From Deltaproteobacteria bacterium (GTDB taxonomy: Bacteria; Bdellovibrionota; FAC87; UBA2466): DNA of 64,000 nt. The notes beneath the pieces were generated by a model. That model had not been told where the DNA came from. It did no database searches and saw only the letters and a program-made list of their open reading frames with translations. The stretch is taken from NCBI GenBank assembly GCA_016196825.1, contig JACPWY010000010.1, forward strand, positions 233,355 through 297,354, written 5' to 3'. A program made the position numbers and the translations under genes. The stretch's first letter is position 1, and every line of letters begins with the position of its first letter. This document shows, one piece after another, positions 25,554 through 26,726 of this stretch.

Positions 25554-26726
25554 GTGTTTGCCATTCTCCTTTTTCTGTTGGGTACAATATTTGCCGCAGC
25601 GCTTGAATATGACGCGGCCAATTGTCGAAGGGTTACGGCAGAATTTGGGTCTGCGCTCTCAGAGCCAGCATTGAGATTCGCTGAACGGCTCAATGAGATG
25701 TTTGGAAATAGGCAACAGGGCCATTCTCGCCAAGAGCGACAGTTGAGGGAGGTTTTGGAGCTTTTCAAAAGGTACGTGACCCAAACGGACGCCCACAAGG
25801 CGTATGAAGAACTGCTCACCGATGAGACCGGCAAAGGCAATCCCAAAGATATGGCGGAGCTGGACGGTGAGAAAAAACGCTCCGAGAAGGTCATCGCTGC
25901 GCTGGCGCCCGAATTGCGAGACCGACTGGTGGAGTACCTTGATCCGATGCACCAACAAACGAAATTTTTCCTCGAAATTGACTCTGCCGGGGGAGGCGAC
26001 GATACCGCGTCCCATGTCCAAAATCTCACTGGCTACTTTGCACGTCTTGGAAGTGCGAACGGCTGGAAGGTAACAGAGGTCTCTTCTCAGGAAAATGAGC
26101 ACGGGGTCCAGAAGCATATTGTTCTCGAAATAGAGGGGGCCAGCGCCTACAGGTTTCTGAAATTCGAGGCGGGTCAGCATAGAATTGAATACAAGAAATC
26201 GAGCAAAGTGCATACCAGCACTGTGAATGTTTCTCTCTGGCCGAAGGTCGATGCTAAAGCCTTCACGTTGCAAGAAGCCGATGTTGAGATAACCACCCAA
26301 AGAGGTTCTGGCCCGGGCGGACAAAAGGTTAATAAGACAGACTCGGCTGTTCGCGCCAAGCATGTTCCCACCGGTCTTTCGGTGTTGGTACAAGACGAGC
26401 GTTCCCAGGCCCAAAATAAGACGAAGGCCCTTGAACTATTGGCCGCCAAGGTATCCAAACTTGAGGCGGATAAGGCTGAGAAGAAAAGGGTCGAGGACCG
26501 GGCGAGAGCGGCTGGGACTGCTCGCCCGAGAGCGGAGCCCCGCATCCGAACCTATGATCTTGGGGACAATCGAATCACCGACCACAGAACTGGACAAAAA
26601 GAGAACCAGAAGATGCACTCTGTGTCGGAATCCATCACACAGCCTTTCTACGATGGCCTGCAGGGTTGGTATCTCGAGAACCTTCTTGAAGCTAGCGAGT
26701 CACCGGCAGCACCACGTCAGCACTAA
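25554..26726 (+). CDS. Class-I peptide chain release factor (RF1-family) paralog lacking the PxT motif
   Basis: [39 protein letters not shown] and [18 protein letters not shown] are colinear with RF1. The decoding loop reads [14 protein letters not shown]. Start is uncertain: GTG 25554 gives a hydrophobic N-terminus, and the first ATG is at 25698. Confidence 0.75.
   Translation: [390 protein letters not shown]

Follow-up and report, generated by a model that had tools for sequence, protein, structure and literature searches.

We analysed a 64,000-nucleotide stretch of DNA from a Deltaproteobacteria bacterium assembly (GCA_016196825.1, contig JACPWY010000010.1, positions 233,355 to 297,354 of the forward strand), hereafter the window, focusing on one plus-strand gene at 25554..26726 whose product is a paralog of the bacterial class-I release factor RF1 (PrfA). 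The coding sequence specifies 390 amino acids and a stop codon and begins at a GTG, the only canonical in-frame start after the upstream stop. An earlier note on this DNA had described the open reading frame (ORF) as colinear with RF1, with the catalytic GGQ motif kept and the PxT loop that reads stop codons lost. Every peptide quoted in it is present in the translation, and Pfam recovers both release-factor domains, PCRF (PF03462, residues 53–226, 85 bits, 6.6e-24) and RF-1 (PF00472, residues 237–345, 104 bits, 5e-30).

The protein has the full four-domain layout of a class-I factor, and AlphaFold2 predicts a high-confidence fold for all four domains (mean predicted local distance difference test score, pLDDT, 81.8). 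Domain 1, a helical bundle at residues ~33–134 (25650..25955, +), is covered by the PCRF match from residue 53 and modelled as helices 37–50, 59–89 and 97–129 with pLDDT 74–95. Domain 2 (residues ~135–232; 25956..26249, +), delimited from the alignments and the AlphaFold2 model, comprises the alpha-5 tip GGGDD (146–149) and the beta-hairpin that normally bears PxT. The best-conserved part is domain 3, the peptidyl-tRNA hydrolysis domain (26250..26519, +), to which the RF-1 match corresponds and which contains the GGQ codons (26316..26324, +); as the earlier note had read, the motif is intact, and G255, G256 and Q257 are invariant across the alignments of the paralog's family and of canonical RF1s. 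In the switch-loop region and domain 4 (residues ~323–390; 26520..26723, +), two residues, among them an invariant Pro329, are inserted before RIRTYD; the motif DHRTG and a C-terminal helix of divergent sequence, YLENLL, also lie here.

Scores against curated NCBIfam models are uniformly low. The two prfA models come closest (TIGR00019, 224.5 bits against a cutoff of 423.25; NF001859/PRK00591, 226.6 against 400), followed by prfB (TIGR00020, 162 against 370), PrfH (92 against 166.65) and ArfB (40 against 100); since every curated cutoff is missed and prfA ranks first, the paralog is RF1-like and is accepted by no equivalog model. The top sequence match in the PDB is E. coli RF1 (HMMER, 5.7e-43), with RF2 next at ~1e-31, and the top Foldseek structures for the AlphaFold2 model are likewise RF1 and RF2, the best superposition being on the free compact RF1 1zbt (target-normalised TM-score 0.74). 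The profile and structure comparison with RF1, RF2, PrfH, ArfB and mtRF1 that had been proposed as a check thus places the protein as RF1-like and outside all curated families. No second release-factor gene was found within the 64-kb window, and no methyltransferase was seen among the ~45 ORFs scanned, in agreement with the earlier remark that a prmC/hemK neighbour is lacking. Because its score falls short of the cutoff for the equivalog, and because a close, syntenic relative of another family member does without the gene (see below), the paralog is, as judged from these comparisons, a divergent RF1-like factor and not the canonical housekeeping prfA.

The stop-codon-reading loop

Three alignments leave the Pro and Thr of PxT without a counterpart at a site between and around E212-Y213 and K214 (26190..26195, +). 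HMMER against E. coli RF1, MAFFT with canonical RF1s and a profile–profile comparison with hhalign agree on a 4-residue gap, larger than the 2–3 residues counted previously; hhalign aligned the profile of the paralog's family to a profile of 41 RF1s with a probability of 100% (E = 8.9e-73) and the same 4-column gap. The E. coli RF1 segment that faces the shortened loop in the HMMER alignment is HRVQRVPATESQGRIHTS. Which residues count as lost depends on the aligner (the RVPxT side, or QRVP), with the Pro and Thr unmatched either way, and the Gln two residues upstream of PxT (E. coli Q185) is either deleted or faces a Glu, again according to the aligner. In none of the three alignments does the paralog loop contain an equivalent of PxT or of the RF2 SPF motif.

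The AlphaFold2 model gives the same picture, with strands 207–215 and 218–230 joined by a 2-residue turn that replaces the recognition loop (pLDDT ~93–95). On these alignments and the predicted structure, the stop-codon-reading loop is truly deleted rather than misaligned, and the claimed loss of PxT or SPF stands, the alignment check having placed no functional equivalent. Other decoding-related positions of domain 2 are partly retained: H220 and T221 correspond to E. coli H197 and T198, of which only the Thr is invariant across the family, and the GGGDD tip of the window protein is not conserved among its relatives.

Family membership and distribution

An exhaustive phmmer search of 1.84 billion protein representatives (50% identity) returned only four true relatives (P0122, P0123, P0125 and P0127), which are 31–37% identical to the paralog. 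PxT is missing in all four; P0122, P0123 and P0125 have a loop of the same length as that of the window protein, and P0127, in which PxT is absent too, has a separate 7-residue insertion. Members are further marked by the 2-residue insertion with its invariant Pro before [IV]R.Y[DN], by a T[DE].R[ST]G motif and by a related, divergent C-terminal helix. In a neighbour-joining tree the five members are monophyletic with bootstrap support of 75/100; family and RF2 group together in 88 of 100, an arrangement obtained with a single RF2 outgroup and likely to reflect long-branch attraction.

Other searches added no members. A word-indexed search retrieved the window protein itself from three assemblies and otherwise nothing nearer than canonical RF1s (37–40% identity), and a word-indexed profile search with the family alignment was dominated by canonical RF1s and recovered only P0125 of the family. 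We also derived from the switch-loop region a degenerate DNA pattern of the family-specific motif, which matches all family members among the collected loci and nothing else. Across 185,579 species-representative genomes it matched one, the carrier of P0123, ‘Deltaproteobacteria bacterium GL72_UP_metabinner_28’; in JGI metagenomes it gave no true match (the single match was a false positive in an unrelated gene), and in viral contigs no match at all. Five RF1-like proteins with variant loops (P0255, P0202, P0242, P0257 and P0161) were rejected as members, as they have neither the family indels nor a signal peptide. The paralog and its relatives apparently constitute a very small, undescribed RF1-derived clade, with five lineages in public data on the evidence of these searches; the survey of orthologues and neighbourhoods suggested earlier accordingly ends with five members, patchily distributed and sharing no neighbours.

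Conservation within this clade is uneven. Domains 1 and 2 are poorly conserved (0.22–0.28 identity), whereas identity in the GGQ domain is 0.42–0.43 within the family, as strong as toward canonical RF1, and the surroundings of the motif, G.GGQ.VNK..S.V..H.PTG...Q..RSQ..N, are kept despite ~65% divergence. Such conservation in five lineages argues for selection on catalytic function.

The N-terminus and start site

Residues 1–16 (25554..25601, +) are a predicted Sec-type signal peptide, followed by LEYD. The hydrophobic h-region reaches a Kyte-Doolittle value of 2.77 over 12 residues and A-A-A precedes the acidic residues; the n-region is uncharged, and AlphaFold2 models the segment with pLDDT <50. 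All signal-peptide calls reported here rest on hydropathy, charge and motif inspection.

When each gene is read from its first start codon, a hydrophobic N-terminal stretch is found in 5/5 members (Kyte-Doolittle over 12 residues, 2.18–3.32), and in four of the five it sits between a positively charged n-region and an early mature region that is acidic, an arrangement that directs translocation of the remaining polypeptide. P0122 and P0123 both show MKR, an h-region and an A-x-A-like site. The N-terminus of P0122 is MKRFFLILLLIVFLSSTPIRA, then DEST, with a Shine-Dalgarno-like AGGAAG upstream of the start. The gene callers placed the start of P0125 at an internal Met; its ORF extends further upstream and, translated from the first start codon, gives MFLRPALVGLIFLLAC, with a textbook lipobox, LLAC. 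The corresponding first-start reading of P0127 is MSMPTISAVRVLLGRGRGLSFFGPTSAVWLLPVVMFFSSTC, and in P0123 an in-frame upstream ORF, one TAG away, begins MKRLSCLVTFLALFPFSMA, then HGSD, and runs into recognisable domain-1 sequence. A comparable hydrophobic N-terminus occurs in only 4 of 355 other release-factor-family proteins collected (>=300 aa), and at least three of these four (P0181, P0222 and P0269; 411–522 aa) seem to be long N-terminal extensions. By inspection of these N-termini, all five members share a predicted Sec-type signal peptide. The hydrophobic segment that the earlier note found odd, and under-weighted, is accordingly no annotation artefact to be escaped by starting at the first ATG, which does lie at 25698; it is a predicted signal shared across the family. 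Just after the signal peptide, all five members also align a Cys (alignment including L004, L006, L012 and L013), which in the window protein is Cys24 (25623..25625, +), its only Cys; this residue could form a disulfide to a partner or be acylated in some form.

P0123 (loci L013 and L014) is split by its in-frame TAG (L013:3349-3351) into a part with the signal peptide and domain 1 (2935–3348) and the remainder (3367–4194), identically in two assemblies. The codon faces A/V/E/E in the other members, and TAG is an ordinary stop elsewhere on the contig; an in-frame UAG within an RF1-like gene is in itself curious, and could be a nonsense mutation, a site of programmed readthrough, or a route to a signal-less form.

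A perfect TATAAT hexamer lies 6 nt upstream of the GTG (25542..25547, +) and is a candidate −10 box by inspection, with a weak −35 element (3/6). The family member at L012 has a similar TACAAT 7 nt before its ATG (L012:9890-9907), and these −10-like hexamers 6–7 nt before the start suggest that the transcripts of two members may be leaderless or near-leaderless. A consensus promoter scan did not call the TATAAT at 25542–25547, and called no promoter between 25554 and 25698. Of the TATAAT- and TACAAT-like hexamers that had been placed between the GTG and the ATG, TACAAT (25583) is indeed inside this interval and TATAAT is upstream of the GTG; nor is the interval AT-rich as had been stated, its GC content (25554–25697) being 0.50 compared with 0.53 in the rest of the gene. 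An internal promoter or a start at ATG 25698 was therefore rejected, the scan having found no promoter and the stretch not being AT-rich.

Genomic context

Immediately upstream of the paralog, a gene for a VWA protein (22774–24081) is followed, after a 27-bp gap, by one for a Zn-ribbon/Ser-Thr kinase/FHA protein (24109–25521, +), which a 32-bp gap separates from the paralog. The kinase has a Cys-rich, Zn-ribbon-like motif at its N-terminus and FHA at its C-terminus, and matches the generic defence-kinase models mad6 and PD-T4-6 in PADLOC; the release-factor-like protein itself has no PADLOC match and is not a known anti-phage defence component. BLASTP among all called genes of the five loci identified no conserved neighbours. 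As the release-factor-like gene is the only one shared, the VWA and kinase pair is not a conserved partner. The downstream gene (26849–27637, +) has no family match; read from the Met called in NCBI/Logan (249 aa), MKLLMISGLTSLLLLGC resembles a lipoprotein signal with a lipobox.

The gene is accessory. Locus L006, the carrier of P0122 (6351–7524), is syntenic on both sides with the JGI contig L017 at ~80% nucleotide identity, and exactly where the 1.17-kb gene sits in L006 the latter has a 97-bp spacer with an inverted repeat (a hairpin; L017:12282-12378). From this empty site we conclude that the gene is dispensable and was gained or lost recently. In the window, the paralog has the lowest GC content at third codon positions (0.565) of the 21 genes measured (0.63–0.74), which is consistent with recent acquisition or weak expression.

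Elsewhere in the window, a type II secretion system (T2SS) cluster encoding GspF, GspE, the secretin GspD and GspC lies 16–23 kb upstream of the paralog (2874–9500, −); the best match of GspC is the delta-type GspC model. A 586-aa protein with multiple ankyrin repeats is encoded at 12009–13769 (+); such repeats are unusual in free-living bacteria and are often tied to interaction with other cells. Overlapping genes at 33466–34843 (−) encode an AbiEi antitoxin and an AbiEii nucleotidyltransferase toxin, a type IV toxin-antitoxin/abortive infection pair. An 889-aa protein (34892–37564, −) weakly matches aceE/2-oxoglutarate dehydrogenase models (141 bits against a cutoff of 860) and is, on this similarity, a divergent thiamine-diphosphate enzyme, adjoining a peptide deformylase. 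The sole RNA gene detected in the window is tRNA-Lys(CTT) (14988–15061, +). PPK1 and Pst are also encoded. A protein fragment 100% identical to PPK1 is annotated as ‘Deltaproteobacteria bacterium’ (locus tag HYR96_), and the named proteins among the top 120 matches of PPK1 (54–69% identity) are mostly from Bdellovibrionota, Bdellovibrionales, Bacteriovoracaceae and Oligoflexia, so that by this comparison, to which the delta-type match of GspC and the presence of the T2SS can be added, the host looks like a member of the Bdellovibrionota.

Relation to known release factors

RF1 (TIGR00019/PRK00591) is the closest known relative in form: the paralog shares its four domains, its GGQ loop and flanks, and the E.G.HR and H-T-S elements of domain 2, and scores higher against RF1 than against RF2. 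It differs from RF1 in being ~30–37% identical, at half the equivalog cutoff score; in its 4-residue deletion of PxT and the upstream Gln, its 2-residue Pro insertion before IRTYD and its divergent C-terminus; and in having a predicted signal peptide, a conserved Cys, accessory status and no prmC neighbour. RF1 is moreover essential, universal and single-copy, whereas the gene studied here is missing at syntenic L017 and its family motif occurs in 1 of 185,579 species genomes. From RF2 the paralog is set apart by a loop without SPF and by a score of 162 bits against the required 370.

Three other paralogs offer partial parallels. Like vertebrate mtRF1, which co-exists with a canonical release factor, the protein is an RF1 paralog with GGQ and a non-canonical codon-recognition loop; in mtRF1 both the loop and the alpha-5 tip are enlarged by insertions, yet the factor continues to decode specific codons. 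That factor is eukaryotic and of unrelated origin (110 bits), with an inserted loop and a mitochondrial presequence, whereas here the loop is deleted and the signal is predicted to be of Sec type. PrfH (RFH, RtcB-linked) is likewise a bacterial, sporadic, non-essential class-I paralog with GGQ that does not read normal stops; it is ~200 aa long, lies beside rtcB and has neither domain 1 nor a signal peptide, unlike the paralog, which retains domain 1 and has no rtcB nearby. With ArfB (YaeJ)/ICT1 the paralog would share GGQ-based, codon-independent peptidyl-tRNA hydrolysis, an activity known for ArfB and putative here; ArfB consists of a GGQ domain and a basic tail that probes the empty mRNA channel, whereas the paralog keeps domains 1, 2 and 4 and ends in an acidic or neutral C-terminus. 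By analogy, then, it would work most like ArfB or PrfH, independently of codons, and looks most like RF1.

A functional analogy can also be drawn with the Sec-exported hydrolases of predatory Bdellovibrionota, which have a Sec signal, a substrate found only in another cell and the same host lineage; a release-factor-derived example is absent from the literature searched, and the delivery of the paralog to a target cytoplasm is presumed. To our knowledge, class-I release factors and their known paralogs (RF1, RF2, PrfH, ArfB/ICT1 and the mitochondrial forms) all act in the compartment of their ribosomes. We found no report of an exported release factor in the literature searched, the coverage of which was incomplete, and a survey of release factors covering RF1, RF2, PrfH, ArfB/ICT1 and C12orf65 makes no mention of signal peptides or secretion in bacterial factors (PMC6514570).

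Possible functions of the paralog

What the paralog does we infer throughout from its sequence. GGQ domains act by insertion into the peptidyl-transferase centre, and we know of no activity of such a domain away from that centre of the ribosome. Because GGQ acts only on ribosomes while the predicted signal peptide would send the protein out of the producer's cytoplasm, we tentatively favour, at somewhat less than an even chance, an exported, codon-independent peptidyl-tRNA hydrolase aimed at the ribosomes of another cell. The paralog would be exported through Sec, with further release possible via the T2SS encoded upstream, vesicles or cell contact, and would then reach the ribosomes of a prey or competitor cell. 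There it would occupy the A site and hydrolyse peptidyl-tRNA without a stop codon, so aborting translation; both codon-free binding of the ribosome and opening of the factor are presumed in this step. The fuller proposition, that a Bdellovibrionota-like bacterium secretes a release factor stripped of codon reading as a toxin, forcing premature release on the ribosomes of prey or competitors, we consider doubtful. Among the roles listed in the earlier note, a ribosome-directed effector is thus the one favoured; plain cytoplasmic rescue and non-standard termination fare worse, since the predicted, conserved signal peptide counts against both and favours either an effector or an extracytoplasmic or membrane location.

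Several observations weigh against an exported effector of this kind. The window protein's own N-terminus lacks a charged n-region, the gene callers picked internal starts in three of the five members (P0002, P0125 and P0127), and the in-frame TAG of P0123 could represent decay. No immunity-like or delivery-associated gene is conserved beside the paralog at the five loci, and it has no known path from the periplasm into the cytoplasm of a target. Canonical release factors open only after stop-codon recognition; that the paralog opens without a stop codon is something we infer. As to the host, its taxonomy derives from one marker gene (PPK1), and the sugar ATP-binding cassette transport, glycoside hydrolases and glyoxylate shunt encoded in the window do not resemble the gene set of an obligate predator. 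For two other members (in the comparison of L013 and L017), the nearby DnaE-family polymerase genes are just 28% identical; the value is uninformative as to how the hosts are related, and the family may extend beyond a single phylum.

Some of the same observations would fit a cytoplasmic factor, codon-independent or adaptor-dependent, that rescues the producer's own ribosomes, for example those stalled at the translocon, with the N-terminus either untranslated (owing to an internal start) or kept as an uncleaved membrane anchor. A codon-independent releaser would be expected to combine all the domains of a release factor and an intact GGQ with the absence of a decoding loop, as the paralog does, and ribosomes, the sole known context of GGQ substrates, are cytoplasmic. 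The internal starts called for three members point the same way, as does the charge pattern of the window protein, where the absence of a positive n-region and the RR after the hydrophobic stretch fit an N-out/C-in anchor. In four of the five members, however, the charges put the release-factor domains outside by the positive-inside rule, one member has a lipobox, and the internal Met residues do not occupy matching positions from member to member. There is also no partner gene resembling ArfA, ArfT or BrfA, nor any conserved neighbour, among the five loci, and no basic C-terminal tail of the ArfB type. We regard rescue in the producer's cytoplasm as the main alternative, though rather unlikely.

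An exported protein might instead have a role independent of ribosomes, such as a periplasmic or surface binder that mimics tRNA, or might be drifting to loss, with GGQ kept by structure or ancestry. The signal peptides would take the protein to a compartment devoid of ribosomes, the family is of extreme rarity and patchy occurrence, a close relative does without the gene, one member contains an in-frame TAG, and domains 1 and 2 have diverged as far as described above. Set against this, the residues around GGQ that contact the peptidyl transferase are kept across ~65% divergence in five lineages, and the AlphaFold2 model shows a confident fold for each of the four domains, which makes such an account improbable. 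Most improbable of all is that the paralog serves the producer's own translation as a terminator of altered codon specificity, like vertebrate mtRF1, which uses non-standard codons, or that it is the sole RF1 of the organism. In favour, a release factor can be retargeted by remodelling of its decoding loop, mtRF1 structures are among the PDB matches and the window protein keeps GGGDD and H220-T221. Yet the loop has been lost, not remodelled, the alpha-5 tip is unconserved in the family, a signal peptide is predicted, a close relative of another member lacks the gene at the syntenic site, the score lies far under the prfA equivalog cutoff, and a carrier contig uses TAG, TAA and TGA alike as ordinary stops.

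Returning to the favoured exported hydrolase, a clade in which GGQ is kept, the stop-codon reader deleted and a secretion signal added would match no described role. If exported and active, the paralog would represent a new kind of ribosome-directed effector, built from the termination machinery, and no such class is reported in the literature searched. It would further provide a natural case of release-factor action with no stop codon required, and so could help to explain the link between codon recognition and the factor's opening. If the protein is held at the membrane instead, a location-specific rescue pathway would be indicated.

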